Source: an uncultured virus (IMG/VR IMGVR_UViG_3300020187_000012) (lineage: Duplodnaviria > Heunggongvirae > Uroviricota > Caudoviricetes). Taken from it: a DNA stretch of 63,503 nucleotides. This document shows positions 12,333 to 57,246 of this stretch, one piece after another. A program made the translations under genes and the position numbers. Location of the stretch: the IMG/VR virus record IMGVR_UViG_3300020187_000012, positions 62,001 through 125,503 of that record, one strand, 5' to 3'. The first letter of the stretch is position 1, and each line of letters starts with the position of its first letter. Under the pieces are notes generated by a model that saw only the letters and a program-made list of their open reading frames with translations, was not told where the DNA came from and made no database searches.

Positions 12333-12364
12333 AAGGTCTAGAGCAATCTAGGCCTTTTCTTTTT
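12333..12364 (+). terminator. Intrinsic terminator
   Basis: aaggtctaga-gcaa-tctaggcctt followed by T-tract. Confidence 0.85.
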
Positions 12365-12392
12365 GAAACAAATACCATTAAGTGCATATAAA
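12365..12392 (+). promoter_or_regulatory. Putative middle promoter GAAACA-N16-TATAAA
   Basis: Recurrent bipartite motif. Confidence 0.65.
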
Positions 12393-12396
12393 ATAT

Positions 12397-12642
12397 ATGA
12401 ACTTCGAGATAAATCCAAACAAGCATTATTTAAAAGCACTTTTTGTTATAGAGTCTTGTACGAATAAAGCACACTTAGATGTTGCCGAACGTTGTATTGA
12501 ACTTTATAATTCAAGAGAACTTCAGTTTGTTAAGTTTTTTGATAAGTCTATGATTAAACCTATAGTTATGCATACTGGTCACTATGACCACCAAACCGCA
12601 GTTTGGATATTAAGAAAGAAATTAAGCAATAAGAAATTGTAA
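12397..12642 (+). CDS. Hypothetical protein
   Basis: ATG just downstream of the promoter motif. Confidence 0.6.
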   Translation: MNFEINPNKHYLKALFVIESCTNKAHLDVAERCIELYNSRELQFVKFFDKSMIKPIVMHTGHYDHQTAVWILRKKLSNKKL

Positions 12643-14413: not shown

Positions 14414-14881
14414 ATGGCAAATATAGATAATCAATGTAAAGACCTAGAAGTAACAGACTTCTATGGCGAATCAAAAACGCATTTGGCAGACATCATGTCT
14501 CACCAAAAAGAAATGCAAGAAAAAACTTATGGTGTTAACTTTGAAAACATGACAATCCGCGAAGTCATGAATTTCTGGCACATGAACACACACGCAGTCA
14601 TTGATGAAATTCACGAGATGACAGATGCATTGGGTGGTATTAATGATGGTTCCGGTAATGCAGTTTGGAAGCCTTGGAAGAAAGACCACACGATATATGA
14701 TACCATGAAGGTTTCTGATTTATCAGAAGGCGACCTTAAGGAGTTGTACATGGAATGGGTTGATATCTTACACTTCTTTATGAACTACGCTGCGTCAATC
14801 GGACTCGACGCACAAACGGCATATAATTACTACTTTGCAAAAGCTGAGGAGAATAAGAACCGTCAAAAGCGTGGATACTAA
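14414..14881 (+). CDS. All-alpha NTP pyrophosphatase (dimeric dUTPase/dCTPase-like)
   Basis: DEIHEMTDAL, WKPWK, EWVDILHF motifs. Confidence 0.85.
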   Translation: MANIDNQCKDLEVTDFYGESKTHLADIMSHQKEMQEKTYGVNFENMTIREVMNFWHMNTHAVIDEIHEMTDALGGINDGSGNAVWKPWKKDHTIYDTMKVSDLSEGDLKELYMEWVDILHFFMNYAASIGLDAQTAYNYYFAKAEENKNRQKRGY

Positions 14882-16284
14882 TGCTATTAGATGTAGAGCA
14901 AAAAGATAAAGAAATTATCGTTTCATATTACGATACAGAAGGTCAAGTAAAGTTTCGTCGTTATCCGATTGAGCAATACAAAAACTGGTATATTACAGAT
15001 GAAAACGATAGATATAAACACGATTCTTTAAGAAACTGGGACGGTCGCCCCGTTAAAGAAGGTAGAGCTAGGCAGTACAGTAAATTTTCATTAATTTCAT
15101 TTTTAGATAATTTACCGGATAATGATAAAAAGATTATCTTTGAACCTACAATGCCAAAAACATACTTTGTCGATATTGAAACTGAGATTGTTGATGGTTT
15201 CCCAAAACCAGAAGAAGCTAAAACCAGAATCTTATCATTTTCAATTATCACACCAGAACGTAAAGCGATTGTACTGGGTTTAGAAGATATGGCACCTGAT
15301 AAAATTCAGAAGATTCAAGACGATACAAACAATTACTTTAAGACTCTTGATTCTGATTGGACTTTTGATTACCGTAAGTTTGATTCTGAATATGATATGG
15401 TTTTTACATTTATTAATAGGTTTTTGCCTAAGTTTCCGATGATGACTGGTTGGAACTTTATTAATTATGACTGGCAGTATATTGTAAACCGTTGTAAGCG
15501 TCTTCAGATTGATATTACAGCAGCTGCAAAAACTAAAGCACTTGACCGTGTAGATTCACGGCCATTGCATATGGGTATTCTTGATTACATGCAATTGTAT
15601 GACAAATACGACCGTAGTGTTAAAGTAAAGGAGTCTAACGCACTCGACTATGTATCTGGACAAGTACTTAACTTAAACAAGATAAAGTATACAGGTGGCT
15701 TACAAGACTTGTATGTACAAGATTTTGTTAAGTATATTTACTACAATGTTGTCGATTCAGTTTTAGTTTATTATATTGACCAAAAGCTAAAGTCAATGGA
15801 AGTTCTTTTGACCCTAGCGTCTATCACAAAAATGCCATTATATAAAGCTGCATCACCAGTATCAGTTACCGAAGCTTTGATTGCACGTAAGCTTGCTGAA
15901 GAAAACAAATGTGTTGCAACTGAAAAGAAAGAGGACAGCTTTAAAGATGGTAAGTACGCCGGTGCTTATGTGAAACAACCTAAAGTTGGGTATTATCAAG
16001 GTGTAAGTGCATTTGACTTTGCGTCACTATATCCATCTATTATGCGTCAGTTTAATATTTCACCAGATGCATATAAAGATATTATCCCGGTATCACAGAT
16101 ACCTGAACGCCGTAAAAACAAAGATGAAATTGTTTGTGCAAATGGCGTTGTTTATGATAAAAAAGATTCTATCTTAAAGCAAATCCTAACCGACCTTTAC
16201 GGACAACGTAAAGATTACAAGAAGACGTCTTATGAGTATTACTCAAAGGCAAAAGAGATTAAGGACAGATTATCTAAATTATAA
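14881..16284 (+). CDS. Family-B DNA polymerase, N-terminal subunit (3'-5' exonuclease plus motif A)
   Basis: DIET exo I, GWNFINYD exo II, YNVVD exo III, DFASLYPSIM motif A; ends in the fingers region. Confidence 0.92.
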   Translation: MLLDVEQKDKEIIVSYYDTEGQVKFRRYPIEQYKNWYITDENDRYKHDSLRNWDGRPVKEGRARQYSKFSLISFLDNLPDNDKKIIFEPTMPKTYFVDIETEIVDGFPKPEEAKTRILSFSIITPERKAIVLGLEDMAPDKIQKIQDDTNNYFKTLDSDWTFDYRKFDSEYDMVFTFINRFLPKFPMMTGWNFINYDWQYIVNRCKRLQIDITAAAKTKALDRVDSRPLHMGILDYMQLYDKYDRSVKVKESNALDYVSGQVLNLNKIKYTGGLQDLYVQDFVKYIYYNVVDSVLVYYIDQKLKSMEVLLTLASITKMPLYKAASPVSVTEALIARKLAEENKCVATEKKEDSFKDGKYAGAYVKQPKVGYYQGVSAFDFASLYPSIMRQFNISPDAYKDIIPVSQIPERRKNKDEIVCANGVVYDKKDSILKQILTDLYGQRKDYKKTSYEYYSKAKEIKDRLSKL

Positions 16285-17435: not shown

Positions 17436-19241
17436 ATGAAAGATACTATAAATTACGGCGCAGAATTTGGTTGGGAACTTGGTGTTGATTTCCCTGTATG
17501 GGCAAACACTGAAATTTACGTTAAGACGGTTTCAAAGGGTTACCTAATTGACGATGAGACACCAAAAGATGCTTATTGGAGAGTGGCAACGGCAATTGCG
17601 AAAAGACTTCAAAAGCCTGAGATGGCTAGTAAGTTTTATGATTACATTTGGAGAGGTTGGTTAAATCTTGCTACTCCAGTGTTCTCAAATACAGGTACTG
17701 AAAGAGGTTTACCAATCTCGTGTTTTGGTATTGATGTCGCCGATTCTATCTACGATATCGGTAACAAGAACTTAGAGTTAATGCTTTTAGCGAAGCACGG
17801 TGGTGGCGTTGGTATTGGTGTAAACCAAATTAGACCAGCTGGTGCAAATATAAAAGGTAATGGTACATCTGATGGTGTGGTTCCGTTTATTAAAATTTAT
17901 GACTCAACAATACTTGCAACTAATCAAGGTTCTGTTCGTAGAGGTGCTGCTTCTGTAAATATAGATATTGAGCATGCTGATTTCTGGGAATGGTTAGAGA
18001 TTCGTGAGCCTAAGGGTGATGTAAACCGTCAATCATTAAACGTACATCAATGTGTTGTAGTTTCAGATGGTTTTATGCAAAAGCTAGAAGCTGGTGATAA
18101 AGAATCACGTAAAAGATGGGCGGCAGTTCTTAGAAAGCGTCGTTCAACTGGTGAGCCTTACATTATGTTTAAGGGCAATGTTAATAGAGCAAATCCAGAC
18201 GCATACAAAAACAATGGTCTTAAAGTTTATATGACAAATATTTGTTCTGAGATTGCGTTACATACTGATGAAAATCATTCATTTGTTTGTTGTCTATCTT
18301 CAGTTAACTTACAGAAGTATGACGAATGGAAAAATACTGACCTTATTTATACTGCAACATGGTTCCTTGATGGTGTTTTAGAAGAATTTCTTGCAAGAGC
18401 AAAATACATGAGAGGTTTTGAAAATTCAGTACGTTCTGCAGAAAAAGGTAGAGCACTTGGTTTGGGTGTACTTGGATGGCACACATACTTACAAGAGCGT
18501 AATATTCCTTTTGATTCTATAGGTGCTCAGTTTGAAACTCGTAAAATCTTTTCTCAAATCAAGATTGAATCTGAAAGAGCTTCTAGAGATATGGCACAAG
18601 AATATGGTGAACCACTTTGGTGTGTTGGTACTGGAATGCGCAACACTCACTTAAGAGCTATTGCACCGACTGTATCAAACTCAAAGTTATCAGGTAATGT
18701 ATCACCAGGTATTGAACCTTGGGCTGCTAACGTGTTTACTGAACAAACATCAAAGGGTACCTTTATTAGAAAGAACCCAACCCTTGAAAAATTCTTAAAC
18801 GCCGCAAAGTTAAATACAAAAGATATTTGGAATAAAATTCTTATTGATGGTGGTTCAGTTCAAGATGTTAAAGAATTTGAAGGTTGGTATGGGAAACACG
18901 CAACAGTTGGTGAGTACATTAACCAAAAAAAGTACGACAAATTATCTAAATTAGAAAAAGATGAATGGACACCAATCAAAGAAGTGTTTTTAACTTTCAA
19001 AGAACTAAACCAAATGGAATTAGTTAAGCAAGCTGGTGTCCGTCAACAGTATATTGACCAGGCGGCATCACTAAACTTAGCGTTCCCAACAGAAGCTACT
19101 CCAAAGTTTATTAACCAAGTACACATGGAGGCATACAAACAAGGTGTAAAGACTCTCTATTACATGAGAACTGAATCAGTCCTTAGAGGTGATATTGCAA
19201 CTAGAGCAACAGATCCGGACTGTCTTTCATGTGATGGATAA
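17436..19241 (+). CDS. nrdA: Ribonucleotide reductase class I alpha subunit, without ATP-cone
   Basis: ATPV, SCF, TNICSEI, APT, KTLYY, C-terminal CLSC. Confidence 0.96.
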   Translation: MKDTINYGAEFGWELGVDFPVWANTEIYVKTVSKGYLIDDETPKDAYWRVATAIAKRLQKPEMASKFYDYIWRGWLNLATPVFSNTGTERGLPISCFGIDVADSIYDIGNKNLELMLLAKHGGGVGIGVNQIRPAGANIKGNGTSDGVVPFIKIYDSTILATNQGSVRRGAASVNIDIEHADFWEWLEIREPKGDVNRQSLNVHQCVVVSDGFMQKLEAGDKESRKRWAAVLRKRRSTGEPYIMFKGNVNRANPDAYKNNGLKVYMTNICSEIALHTDENHSFVCCLSSVNLQKYDEWKNTDLIYTATWFLDGVLEEFLARAKYMRGFENSVRSAEKGRALGLGVLGWHTYLQERNIPFDSIGAQFETRKIFSQIKIESERASRDMAQEYGEPLWCVGTGMRNTHLRAIAPTVSNSKLSGNVSPGIEPWAANVFTEQTSKGTFIRKNPTLEKFLNAAKLNTKDIWNKILIDGGSVQDVKEFEGWYGKHATVGEYINQKKYDKLSKLEKDEWTPIKEVFLTFKELNQMELVKQAGVRQQYIDQAASLNLAFPTEATPKFINQVHMEAYKQGVKTLYYMRTESVLRGDIATRATDPDCLSCDG

Positions 19242-19247
19242 ACGTCT

Positions 19248-19332
19248 GTGTGGTTTGAAGACCACACCTTAGGACCGTTCTTAGTGAACGGATTAGAAGC
19301 CAGGGGTTCGCTACTTCCTGGCTTCGCTTTTT
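19248..19332 (+). ncRNA. Three-hairpin structured element / terminator after nrdA
   Basis: gtgtggt/accacac, ccgttc/gaacgg, gaagccagg/cctggcttc. Confidence 0.45.
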
Positions 19333-19334
19333 AT

Positions 19335-19362
19335 GAAACAATCATATTTTAATCTATATAAT
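19335..19362 (+). promoter_or_regulatory. Putative middle promoter GAAACA-N16-TATAAT
   Basis: Recurrent bipartite motif. Confidence 0.7.
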
Positions 19363-19398
19363 AAATGTATTGTCGCTACTAAAAATATACAATACATT

Positions 19399-19761
19399 AT
19401 GGAAATACTTTATTTTGTTTTAGGTATGCTTACAGTGGTAACTTTAGTTGCTGTTGCGGGTGTGGTTAAGATTAAAAGAGAAATGTCAGAAATGGTTGAT
19501 GACCGTTTAGACCAAACAGTAAACCACCTTTCAAGTTACATTGAAAAGGTAGAACGCTACAGCGATGCCGTCGAATCTCGTATAGATTCAGAAGTCGCCA
19601 AACTTTACAAATATGTAGACGAACTACATTCAAAACACGAGGATGACTTAAACGAGTTATATCGTTATGTTGATTCTCGCACAGACAAAATGGCAGATAA
19701 TGTCTCTAAACATATTGCCGAAATTAATCAAGAGTTAGATAGTCTAACTAAACACCTTTAA
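19399..19761 (+). CDS. Membrane-anchored coiled-coil protein
   Basis: ATG at 19399 after promoter; N-terminal TM (ILYFVLGMLTVVTLVAVAGVV), then heptad-like repeats. Confidence 0.75.
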   Translation: MEILYFVLGMLTVVTLVAVAGVVKIKREMSEMVDDRLDQTVNHLSSYIEKVERYSDAVESRIDSEVAKLYKYVDELHSKHEDDLNELYRYVDSRTDKMADNVSKHIAEINQELDSLTKHL

Positions 19762-19779
19762 AAATAAAGCGACAATACA

Positions 19780-19803
19780 GAGAGGACTTCGGTCCTCTTT
19801 TTT
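19780..19803 (+). terminator. Intrinsic terminator
   Basis: agaggac-ttcg-gtcctct plus T-tract. Confidence 0.9.
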
Positions 19804-19809
19804 ATTATT

Positions 19810-19837
19810 GAAACATTCCCACATTAATCCATATAAT
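19810..19837 (+). promoter_or_regulatory. Putative middle promoter GAAACA-N16-TATAAT
   Basis: Recurrent bipartite motif. Confidence 0.7.
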
Positions 19838-19864
19838 AGTTATACAATTTTAAAAAAATAATAA

Positions 19865-20614
19865 ATGAAACTTCAAATTAACCGTATTGACCAGAATAGT
19901 TTGGTTGAGTTTGTTAACAAACTTAAAACAATTGACACGTTCTTGTACTTCAAATTACGTAATGGTAAAGTAACATCCGCTGTTTACTTACCACAAAGAG
20001 ATGCAGTGAAATTGCACACAGCTCCAATTTCAGATTTGTTTTCAATCTCAGAAGCTTTACCAGAAGGTAAAGAACTTAAAGTAGCTTTCTTTGATGCAAC
20101 TAAAGTATTAGATGCAATTAAGATGTTCCAGTCTGACCAGATTCAAGGTGAGATGGAATTTCAAGAAAACGAAGAAGACTTTGTATGTACATCACTTAAA
20201 CTGTACAATGAAGAACTTGAAATTACATTAGCGTGTTCAGACCCATCATTAGGTTTCAAAGACCTTACAGATGCACAGCTTGAAACTATTTTTGACCGTG
20301 AAGGTACAGACTTTGATTTTGTACTAGATACGTTTACATTAGGTAAAATCCGTTCACTATTCTCTCTTGACAAAGAAGAAACATTTTCAATCACTGCTTC
20401 AAACGAAGAAGTACGCGTTCAAGGTAAAACTTATAACTATCAAGCTAATCAAGCGTTTAATGGTAAGGCTTCAGAGGCTACACTTTATAAGAAATATCTT
20501 AACCTACTAGACCGTGAAGAATACAGTGTTTATGTTTCTCGCAATAAAGTAGTTATGAAGTCTAATGACTCAGAGACACTACTAACAATTGCTACTTGTC
20601 AAACAGCGGGATAA
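19865..20614 (+). CDS. Putative sliding clamp (gp45/PCNA-like)
   Basis: 249 aa, beta-rich two-domain pattern, translationally coupled to the polymerase C-terminal subunit. Confidence 0.6.
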   Translation: MKLQINRIDQNSLVEFVNKLKTIDTFLYFKLRNGKVTSAVYLPQRDAVKLHTAPISDLFSISEALPEGKELKVAFFDATKVLDAIKMFQSDQIQGEMEFQENEEDFVCTSLKLYNEELEITLACSDPSLGFKDLTDAQLETIFDREGTDFDFVLDTFTLGKIRSLFSLDKEETFSITASNEEVRVQGKTYNYQANQAFNGKASEATLYKKYLNLLDREEYSVYVSRNKVVMKSNDSETLLTIATCQTAG

Positions 20615-21831
20615 TGACATTAGAAGAGTTACAGAACACCCCGGTCGACTCACTCGGTAAAGAAGATTTGCAACGCTTGGCAGCTCACTATGATCAGTTA
20701 GCTGCCAAGTTCACTGCATATGAGCAAGCGGTAAAAGTTACATTAAACTCTATCTACGGTGCCTTTGGTAATAAGTGGTTTCACTTCTTCAATATTGATA
20801 TTGCTGAATCAATCACGCTACAAAGTCAGAATGCAATTTTATATTCTGAGCAAATTTTAAACAAGTATGTTCAGGAGTTTTGGCATAAGGATACACAGGT
20901 TCACGAAGAACTTGGTATTACTAAAGTTAAAAGTCCATGTAATGAACCGTCAGTTATTTATATTGACACAGATTCTTGTTATGTACAGTTTGATGAATTG
21001 TACAATACTGTTGTTTGGGAAGATGAAGCAAACAAACCAGACATTGATACATTTATTTTAGCACTATACGACAAGCGACTAAAGCTATACATAGAGAAAT
21101 GTATGCAAAAGTATGCTGACGCAACTAACACAGATAACTTCCTTGTTTTTGAACTTGAATCAGTTGCATATGGTGGTATTTGGATGTCTAAGAAGAAATA
21201 CATTCAAGATATTGCATGGGATGATAAACTCCCAACAACTGAAAGACATACACCATTAAGTAAAGTTAAGACAATTGGATTTGATACCATTCAATCATCA
21301 ACACCAACATTTGCTCGTAAAAAATTAGCAGAAGCCCTTAAGGTTTTATTTACAGAACCTTCTGGTCCAACAGCTGAAACACTTGAGAAATTAGTTAAGT
21401 TTTTGAAAGAGTCTAAAAAAGAATTTAAGTTAGCACCACTTGATGATATATCTTTTAACAGACGTACAAACAACTTGGAAAAATACATCATTGACGATAC
21501 GGTTGAATTTCAGTTTGGTATGAAGTGCCCACCTAACGTGAAAGCTGCAGGTTATTACAACTTTACACTAAATAATAATTCAAAGTATAAATCAAAGTAC
21601 AAGATGATTGGTAATGGTGAAAAGCTTAAGATTTATAACTCAATTGATAAAAACGGTTTATGTGATATCTTCGCGTACCTTCCAGGTTCACACCCTTATG
21701 AGATTGCACCGCCGGTTGATTACGAAACACAATTTGAGAAATGTATTATTGACCCATTGAATAGGGTATTAGTCGCAGTTGGTCTTCATACTATCAACCG
21801 TAACCTAATTTATTCAACATCTTTATTTTAG
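20614..21831 (+). CDS. Family-B DNA polymerase, C-terminal subunit (motifs B and C, thumb)
   Basis: KVTLNSIYGAFGN, YIDTDS, KKKY; C-terminal STSLF clamp-binding-like tail; ATG 20614 overlaps the upstream stop. Confidence 0.92.
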   Translation: MTLEELQNTPVDSLGKEDLQRLAAHYDQLAAKFTAYEQAVKVTLNSIYGAFGNKWFHFFNIDIAESITLQSQNAILYSEQILNKYVQEFWHKDTQVHEELGITKVKSPCNEPSVIYIDTDSCYVQFDELYNTVVWEDEANKPDIDTFILALYDKRLKLYIEKCMQKYADATNTDNFLVFELESVAYGGIWMSKKKYIQDIAWDDKLPTTERHTPLSKVKTIGFDTIQSSTPTFARKKLAEALKVLFTEPSGPTAETLEKLVKFLKESKKEFKLAPLDDISFNRRTNNLEKYIIDDTVEFQFGMKCPPNVKAAGYYNFTLNNNSKYKSKYKMIGNGEKLKIYNSIDKNGLCDIFAYLPGSHPYEIAPPVDYETQFEKCIIDPLNRVLVAVGLHTINRNLIYSTSLF

Positions 21832-56475: not shown

Positions 56476-56718
56476 ATGATTACATCAACACATTCACATT
56501 ACGATAGCTCTACGGTCAAGTCAGCAGCTTACAACTACAAACACCAAACTCTTACGGTTCACTTTAATCATGCAACTTATTTATATGAGGGTGTTTCGGC
56601 AGAAGATTGGACTAAATTCGATACGGCAAAGTCTCAAGGTATTGCTCTTAATGATTTCATAAAGGGTAAGTACAACTTTGAAAAAATAAATGAGACAGAA
56701 AAGGTAGCGAATATATAA
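56476..56718 (+). CDS. KTSC-domain protein
   Basis: SSTV...Y.....L.V.F....Y.Y..V....W..F..A.S.G...N..IK. Confidence 0.88.
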   Translation: MITSTHSHYDSSTVKSAAYNYKHQTLTVHFNHATYLYEGVSAEDWTKFDTAKSQGIALNDFIKGKYNFEKINETEKVANI

Positions 56719-57136: not shown

Positions 57137-57187
57137 CAACCCAGACGTGTACGCTCAACTTGAGCAAAAAGTTTTATCAAATTAGAT

Positions 57188-57216
57188 GAAACAAACATAT
57201 GCTAAAAGCATATAAA
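57188..57216 (+). promoter_or_regulatory. Putative middle promoter GAAACA-N17-TATAAA (tRNA operon 2)
   Basis: Recurrent motif upstream of tRNA-Ser. Confidence 0.65.
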
Positions 57217-57219
57217 GTG

Positions 57220-57236
57220 TGTTCTTTGACATATTG
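57220..57236 (+). promoter_or_regulatory. boxA-like antitermination element
   Basis: TGTTCTTTGACATATTG resembles rrn boxA (TGCTCTTTAACA). Confidence 0.6.
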
Positions 57237-57246
57237 GTAGTCAACC

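Follow-up and report, generated by a model that had tools for sequence, protein, structure and literature searches.

A phage gene family with messages predicted to be clamped end to end, and a possible delay of translation in one lineage

Bacterial mRNAs whose two ends pair with each other are known from single cases, namely hbs, icaR and the type I toxin mRNAs. In Bacillus subtilis, a 14-bp pairing of the hbs 5' UTR with its 3' UTR restricts cleavage in vivo (PMC5737220). The icaR pairing represses: by binding the Shine-Dalgarno region, the 3' UTR prevents initiation and brings in RNase III (PMC3868564). The full-length RNA of aapA3 is inert and becomes active by trimming of its 3' end (PMC6733600).

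Here we describe a phage locus belonging to a gene family which, as the comparison of its members indicates, as a whole keeps such a clamp from the first base of the RNA, with the sequence of the arms free to change. In a limited literature search we found no description of a phage mRNA end clamp of this kind. The locus lies in a window of 63,503 nucleotides (the whole stretch of DNA that was analysed, to which all positions refer unless another record is named), which belongs to a virus record with a length of 125,503 bases and a completeness of about 41%; the parts of the unit and its two boundaries are on the plus strand.

Layout and surroundings of the unit

An earlier interpretation of this DNA, hereafter the sequence-only reading, had described a self-contained unit of promoter, open reading frame and terminator, and all three were recovered in place: a promoter-like site at 19333-19362, an ORF of 120 aa at 19399-19761 and, by terminator scan, an intrinsic terminator with a UUCG loop and a U run at 19779-19803, which immediately follows the closing stem's 3' arm. 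At 19334-19362 the site follows the pattern TGAAAC - 15/16 nt - YRTATAAW and is a putative phage promoter, 12 of which occur in the genome and 45, as distinct sites, across the genome and the homologous loci. Counting from the -10 hexamer, 44 of these 45 sites have a purine as fifth base and 40 have a pyrimidine as fourth; moreover, the nearby ATGs of long ORFs fall on base 5 after the promoter hexamer in three cases of three, and in L001 and L003 the pairing begins at the base equivalent to G19367. We infer from this promoter comparison that G19367, the fifth base after the hexamer, is the +1 of the unit's mRNA, and therefore that 19364-19366 would lie outside the RNA, the closing stem would be 11 bp long and the leader hairpin 7 bp. 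A start past 19377, beyond the 5' arm, which the sequence-only reading had named as an argument against its own model, is not what the comparison points to. Two other genes (12364-12400 and G000:C1:59385) have their ATG at the putative +1 of a phage promoter and probably yield leaderless messages. An alternative reading of 142 aa from an ATG at 19333 was rejected, since its first codon falls within the promoter and almost all homologues begin with the methionine of 19399. A search of Rfam 15 with E up to 5 gave no meaningful match in 19150-19900, the matches in the window being nine tRNAs only, and a tmRNA search gave nothing at the unit.

Concerning the neighbours, the gene on the 5' side encodes the large subunit of a class I ribonucleotide reductase (nrdA), and the gene on the 3' side, which had no family match in protein family searches, encodes what we take to be a sliding clamp; beyond it lies presumably a split DNA polymerase, in a T4-like gene order. 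This family B polymerase is apparently divided between 14881-16284 and 20617-21831, labels which we assign from motifs, and the two parts flank the block of nrdB, nrdA, the unit and the sliding-clamp gene. At the upstream boundary, outside the unit, a conserved RNA of three hairpins follows the nrdA stop codon (19244-19330), and its last hairpin is a terminator. The stems of this element have changed and are yet conserved in 11 sequences including the window, and its pattern was found in 24 viral loci, some of them behind genes other than nrdA, with the linker and the loop words fixed and the stems variable. It had no Rfam match of meaningful score and is possibly an uncatalogued 3' regulatory RNA. 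The downstream boundary is the promoter of the next gene (19809-19838), which is an 80% direct repeat (D1) of the unit's own promoter.

Among cultured phages, Flavobacterium phage immuto 2-6A has the NrdA nearest to that of the window (59.5% identity) and also a protein of the unit's family (E 2.5e-17), and in prokaryote genomes the single match to the unit's protein was a contig of 758 bases in an Algoriphagus bin. For these reasons a Bacteroidota host appears likely for the window's phage, which is probably a large phage with a host of the Flavobacteria type. The immuto homologue is preceded by an RNA of 86 nt (L169 3747-3832; NC_055915.1 20246-20331), annotated as tRNA-Cys and long for that type.

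Pairing between the two ends of the message

The perfect 12-nt inverted repeat on which the sequence-only reading had built its 5'-3' pairing (19366-19377 with 19768-19779) is present. The pairing stands, with a full-length RNA predicted to be closed by the 5'-3' stem at P about 0.99, but its length does not: 19366 precedes the putative +1, leaving 11 bp between a 5' arm at 19367-19377 and a 3' arm at 19768-19778, 7 nt behind the stop codon. By itself, a repeat of 12 nt is weak evidence, and the same 1.6 kb holds a perfect inverted repeat of 13 nt (I4) with no apparent role; judging from sequence comparison, the case beyond chance comes from the homologues. When flank pairing was computed for 142 genes of the genome, the unit's gene ranked first (z -3.7), with the next two at -3.6 and -3.5. 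A genome-wide habit of end pairing was not seen, one other gene in the 142 having a comparable duplex by energy and z. The flanks of a 495-aa gene outside the window (G000:C1:29713) also pair (E -19.1, z -3.5, A/T-rich).

Homologues were taken from two scans with alignment A1, in which the 80 best of 159 viral matches and the 80 best of 323 matches in metagenomes were kept; together with the window these gave 161 sequences, 156 with a full ORF and 116 distinct flank pairs with 60 nt on both sides. In the first 60 loci, 56 paired better than with every partner from another cluster, and 56 better than all 200 shuffles. Over the whole set, pairing of a locus with its own flanks reached -15 kcal/mol or lower in 113 of 116 loci, against 378 of 5082 cross-locus pairs, and 106 of 116 loci paired their own flanks better than any cross-cluster partner. 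Arm sequences vary across the family with compensatory pairs retained, around a median stem of 14 bp; in 49 word-anchored stems, positions -1, -2 and -5 are paired in 47, 44 and 44 respectively, with four or five pair types each. In 74 distinct stems scored by Watson-Crick pairs, blind to the strand, G-U oppositions outnumber A-C ones (45 vs 19, p 0.0016), which points to sense-strand RNA. Conservation in homologous loci, which the sequence-only reading had proposed as a check, was thus found for the 5'-3' pairing, and by this covariation we regard the closing stem as shown to be real, selected and conserved as sense-strand RNA.

Three loci are exceptions. L082 joins a 5' half identical to L001 and a 3' half identical to L081 within a shared, identical ORF core; its arms are mismatched, and it is either an assembly chimera or a natural recombinant without a clamp. 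L152 is an overlong frame of 186 aa, and in L154 the partner arm lies further out, near +46, beyond the range searched for the stem. The protein of L081, which stands inside a tRNA array, is 96% identical to the window's, but its arms are different and self-consistent, and a quick protein tree, in which 26 of 63 inner branches are open, shows no agreement with arm type. From these two observations, ORF cores are swapped between cassettes, each cassette retaining a matched pair of arms.

The cassette itself is also mobile, as the comparison of loci shows. L092 carries it whole, from one arm to the other, at a site after tRNA-Gly which in the window stands empty (57878/57879); this is the one convincing case among 22 matches of the empty-site search, most of which reflected generic tRNA likeness. 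In L199 and L203 the nrdA 3' element is joined straight to the promoter of the next gene, without the unit. Presence and absence from arm to arm is what one would expect if the arms were inverted repeats of a mobile element acting at the DNA level, with no role in RNA. Inverted repeats of that kind do not explain why the arm sequences are not conserved, why G-U exceeds A-C on the sense strand and why the arms start at RNA ends, and the mobility itself fits recombination between promoter/stem-loop repeats as described for T4-type phages (PMC2839356); we give the DNA-level explanation next to no credence. By the same analogy, the 80% promoter repeat fits shuffling between promoter/stem-loop cassettes (PMC2839356).

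The position of the arms is narrowly set. In loci preceded by a tRNA, the 5' arm starts 0-1 nt after it in 46 of 58, and in 38 of the 43 loci followed by a tRNA the distance from the end of the 3' arm to that tRNA is -1 to 6 nt. The ends of tRNAs are cut by RNase Z and RNase P, and the message set free by such processing would have both ends paired, like the promoter-driven form from its +1. The inner end of the 5' arm has a median position of -23 from the ATG (5-95%: -33 to -16) and that of the 3' arm one of +10 relative to the stop codon (+5 to +20), which is roughly the limit of the reach of initiating and terminating ribosomes. This narrow spacing of both inner ends, and the flush ends after tRNA processing, would also suit a closed loop for translation, in which, through the clamp, no more than about 35 single-stranded nt separate stop and start and ribosomes are handed back, with a ligated circle as the extreme. 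The spacing is equally explained by keeping clear of ribosomes; furthermore an RNA ligase domain was found in one of five carrier genomes and RtcB in none of the five (completeness is shown for two). Part of the unit is contained in 13 RNA runs, four of which were examined: their contigs (1, 1, 2 and 7 differences) span portions of the ORF at a depth of 2-5, too thin to show ends or a back-joint, and neither appeared in them. As carried-over DNA or the nearly identical ORF of L081 may be their origin, these contigs were not counted as support. Overall we consider the closed loop quite improbable.

The ORF enclosed by the clamp is itself structured. Compared with synonymous shuffles, its folding has a mean z of -3.0 in 24 loci, vs -1.1 in 26 of 28 control genes of similar size from the genome (p 2e-4). 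The ORF bodies are without one shared fold across the family, and the codons of the DSR-x-DK motif gave no conserved RNA structure (consensus energy 0). Over the anchor-coding region, a long hairpin is predicted by folding alone (19406-19478), where 61 representatives give a weak consensus hairpin. Particularly strong folding within the ORF was seen in L029 (z -9.5, dinucleotide shuffle) and L147 (z -9.3, synonymous shuffle).

A boxA-like word occurs in 64 of 116 leaders; the window's leader has none. In one Bacteroidota genome the same word lies 55 nt before the 23S and 122 nt before the 16S rRNA, and its 3' part pairs behind 23S in that operon. It is possible to hypothesize from this that the stem is a processing stalk, a mimic of rRNA leader and trailer cut by RNase III or Mini-III, which would release or destroy the message. 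A helix of 11 bp, as in the window, or of 14 bp, the family median, is short for RNase III. Of the three host regions fetched, one was an rRNA operon, and in the window, besides the missing boxA, promoter and terminator already set the ends, with nothing left to be released. The icaR pairing does yield an RNase III substrate (PMC3868564). We judge the processing stalk improbable.

Two further places in the window touch on the tRNA-linked settings. At 57187-57246 a promoter is followed directly by a boxA-like word and then by tRNA-Ser, as in an rRNA leader; relatives carry a clamped gene before the counterpart of this tRNA-Ser, and the site may be an emptied cassette. At 56476-56718 a small gene, which presumably encodes a KTSC-domain protein, heads a tRNA cluster, and in L004 and L006 a clamped gene follows its homologue.

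The leader hairpin and the proposed switch

The 5' arm has a second possible partner. The 10-nt inverted repeat between 19364-19373 and 19389-19398 described by the sequence-only reading exists, and so does a hairpin, but not one of 10 bp reaching the ATG: from the putative +1 it has 7 bp (19367-19373 with 19389-19395, -4.6 kcal/mol). Its leader strand lies in the A-rich initiation region at -10 to -4, ending 4 nt short of the ATG, and the claim that the hairpin occludes the start codon did not hold. That hairpin and closing stem exclude each other was right, since both use the same 5' bases. The four bases 19374-19377, left in the hairpin loop, are complementary to the first four of the 3' arm and would be a toehold. 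Bacteroidota are described as initiating without Shine-Dalgarno pairing, with upstream adenines and structure tuning initiation, and in F. johnsoniae initiation is reduced by structure close to the start (PMC6847099). For this reason initiation could be reduced by a helix at -10 to -4 even though the ATG itself stays free.

The hairpin is not a property of the family. Among 46 representatives, pairing of the arm with its own leader was not better than pairing with the leaders of others (mean rank 0.46, p 0.18), and its shuffle rank was 0.53, and many boxA-less loci outside the window's lineage are also without it. It belongs to a lineage of ten promoter-driven, boxA-less loci (the window, L001, L003, L008, L071, L084, L085, L088, L089 and L090), eight of which have a hairpin of -4.6 to -5.2 kcal/mol, counting L071 from one base before its putative +1; it is weak in L001 and L008 (-2.1 and -2.2 kcal/mol). 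Loop lengths range from 10 to 15 nt, and five lineage representatives gave shuffle ranks of 0.00, 0.01, 0.02, 0.03 and 0.20. In L008 and L071, arm, leader and 3' arm have changed together at one position, a compensatory triple change that may be one event, as the loci of the lineage are related. The leader hexamer is rare elsewhere (2 of 105 non-lineage loci, 1 of 133 genes of the window's genome), and in L024 and L025 it is present without a partner arm.

The sequence-only reading had proposed that the nascent RNA is translationally off and the full-length RNA on. In six loci of the lineage, the predicted openness of positions -15 to -1 rises from 0.61 to 0.83 on adding the 3' arm, and in the window it is 0.50 without the 3' arm and 0.74 at full length; this part of the proposal is thus maintained as a prediction for the lineage, with no predicted switch in two of the six (L001, 0.76 to 0.80; L008, 0.84 to 0.82). 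As a general purpose of the stem it fails: in 41 other loci openness is unchanged by the 3' arm (0.69 to 0.68, p 0.33), and on this result and the mean leader rank a family-wide leader switch was rejected. It should be noted that the predicted probability of the window's hairpin is 0.95, 0.78 and 0.74 at three nascent lengths but 0.18 at a fourth, ATG+60, and that the hairpin mostly vanishes in the prediction if +1 is 19368 or 19369.

These same data bear on a simpler explanation, that the closing stem alone was selected and the hairpin is an inherited accident of a U/G-rich arm standing beside an A/C-rich initiation region. The flat leader ranks of the family, the unchanged openness in the 41 other loci and in L001 and L008, and the partnerless hexamer of L024 and L025 are all as expected from such an accident; the retention of the hairpin at several loop lengths in eight of ten lineage loci, the triple compensatory change and the rarity of the hexamer elsewhere are not. 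We regard the accident as a real but lesser possibility, and lean slightly towards selection on the lineage hairpin. That the delay of translation in the window's lineage amounts to a strong off-on switch seems doubtful.

The protein, the proposed working of the clamp and known systems

The protein begins with a hydrophobic stretch followed by basic residues and a long helix; its predicted structure is a single helix (residues 2-119, pLDDT 96.8, pTM 0.55). The motif Y-x-DSR-x-DK is conserved at residues 90-97, with DSR-x-DK nearly invariant and its codons varying synonymously. A profile search gave 94 clusters (50% identity) at E up to 1e-10 and 651 at E up to 0.001, the latter figure probably inflated by coiled coils. 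The gene is single-copy in the window's genome and in all five other carrier genomes. In Pfam and NCBIfam no match exceeded the curated cut-off, those far below it having a generic coiled-coil look; PHROG and PADLOC gave weak matches only, a viral fold search gave no match to the predicted structure, and the neighbours in the Atlas are unnamed viral clusters. Sequence matches in the PDB were apolipoproteins, viral fusion helices and two pore-forming toxin subunits (E about 8e-5); these matches were set aside as generic heptad likeness. By the positive-inside rule, the modelled product is probably a membrane-anchored helical stalk facing the cytoplasm.

Nothing shows that this protein is a toxin. 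The sequence-only reading had taken its model from type I toxin-antitoxin mRNAs of the hok or aapA kind, and a membrane anchor, a structured ORF and 5'-3' pairing are indeed shared with them, as would be the metastable hairpin predicted for the window's lineage. The analogy breaks down elsewhere: the protein has 120 aa, a conserved soluble motif and no toxin family above cut-off; an antisense phage-type promoter was found in 0 of 116 loci (one of host type in 2 of 116); half of the loci directly follow a tRNA gene; and the closing stem leaves the initiation region uncovered. Full-length aapA3 is inert (PMC6733600), the opposite polarity, and we consider a type I toxin mRNA highly improbable here.

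The explanation that we favour is an end clamp which defines and protects a structured mRNA, to which the window's lineage adds a modest delay of translation released by a toehold; as a whole we would put this at about even chances, and for the clamp taken alone a stabilising or end-defining role appears likely. Large Bacteroidota phages would carry the unit as a portable cassette of a single gene, its mRNA held together at both ends by the clamp. Leaving no unpaired 5' base and little 3' tail, the clamp would shield the structured message from end-dependent decay, and lying outside the stretches covered by starting and stopping ribosomes it could persist during translation. A literature search on the 5'-end requirement of RppH in Flavobacterium returned nothing. 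In the boxA-less lineage, the nascent 5' arm would be parked on the initiation region as the 7-bp hairpin, until the emerging 3' arm binds the four free loop bases, displaces the hairpin and opens the initiation region. Translation would be delayed modestly, up to the completion of the message, as an addition of the lineage and not the ancestral job of the stem, and the membrane-anchored protein would be made in quantity from a long-lived message.

A stronger form of the same idea is a natural completion checkpoint that needs no protein and is opposite in polarity to hok/aapA: the mRNA would be off while it is made, its own 3' end would switch it on by toehold strand displacement, and a closed, long-lived loop would result. 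In this lineage a metastable hairpin would have taken the place of the boxA/Nus chaperone of its relatives, which mimic rRNA. We treat this as tentative and rather unlikely. If, under the favoured explanation, the hairpin works as predicted, a 3' end would turn on its own translation, a simple part for uncoupling translation from transcription. The promoter-driven, operon and tRNA-array settings of the clamp form a natural series in which end pairing can be related to stability, processing and ribosome recycling, and the cultured pair of Flavobacterium sp. LMO8 and phage immuto 2-6A, whose gene KNV73_gp239 carries the clamp with an arm of the boxA type, makes the family-level question testable.

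With regard to known systems, the cassette resembles the T4-type PeSL cassettes in having a non-core gene between a terminator and a promoter on each side, present or absent among relatives, but in the available portion of that study no end-pairing of the enclosed mRNA is described (PMC2839356). The icaR pairing is at the Shine-Dalgarno sequence, whereas the paired phage bases lie 22-32 nt upstream of the ATG (PMC3868564). With aapA3 and hok the unit would share a co-transcriptional, metastable hairpin in the initiation region, predicted here, that is replaced by a 5'-3' helix, and a membrane-directed product; however, their helix keeps the ribosome site closed and the phage helix is predicted to free it (PMC6733600). 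The unit also differs in that no antisense phage-type promoter was found in the 116 loci and in having a protein of 120 aa instead of a short peptide (30 aa for aapA1), and we do not count it in that class.

The leader-trailer helices of rRNA operons are similar in that flanks pair around a long structured RNA (PMC10250234), and in that 64 of the 116 relatives have the boxA-like word found before 23S in one Bacteroidota genome. Here, in contrast, an mRNA is enclosed, the window's lineage has no boxA, the helix is of 11 bp and cleavage is only a candidate. In hbs, too, a short perfect helix joins the 5' UTR with bases just before the terminator and leaves the ribosome site free, which for the phage is indicated by prediction and covariation. 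The hbs helix affects decay, a role that the phage clamp may have as well, but in hbs the arm is placed within a long leader, with hairpins ahead of it (PMC5737220), and the phage arm starts at the first base. The phage clamp is also kept across a large gene family with unrelated arms and has, in the window, an alternative hairpin. By analogy, it is nonetheless the hbs 5'/3' interaction that the phage clamp would most resemble in its working.
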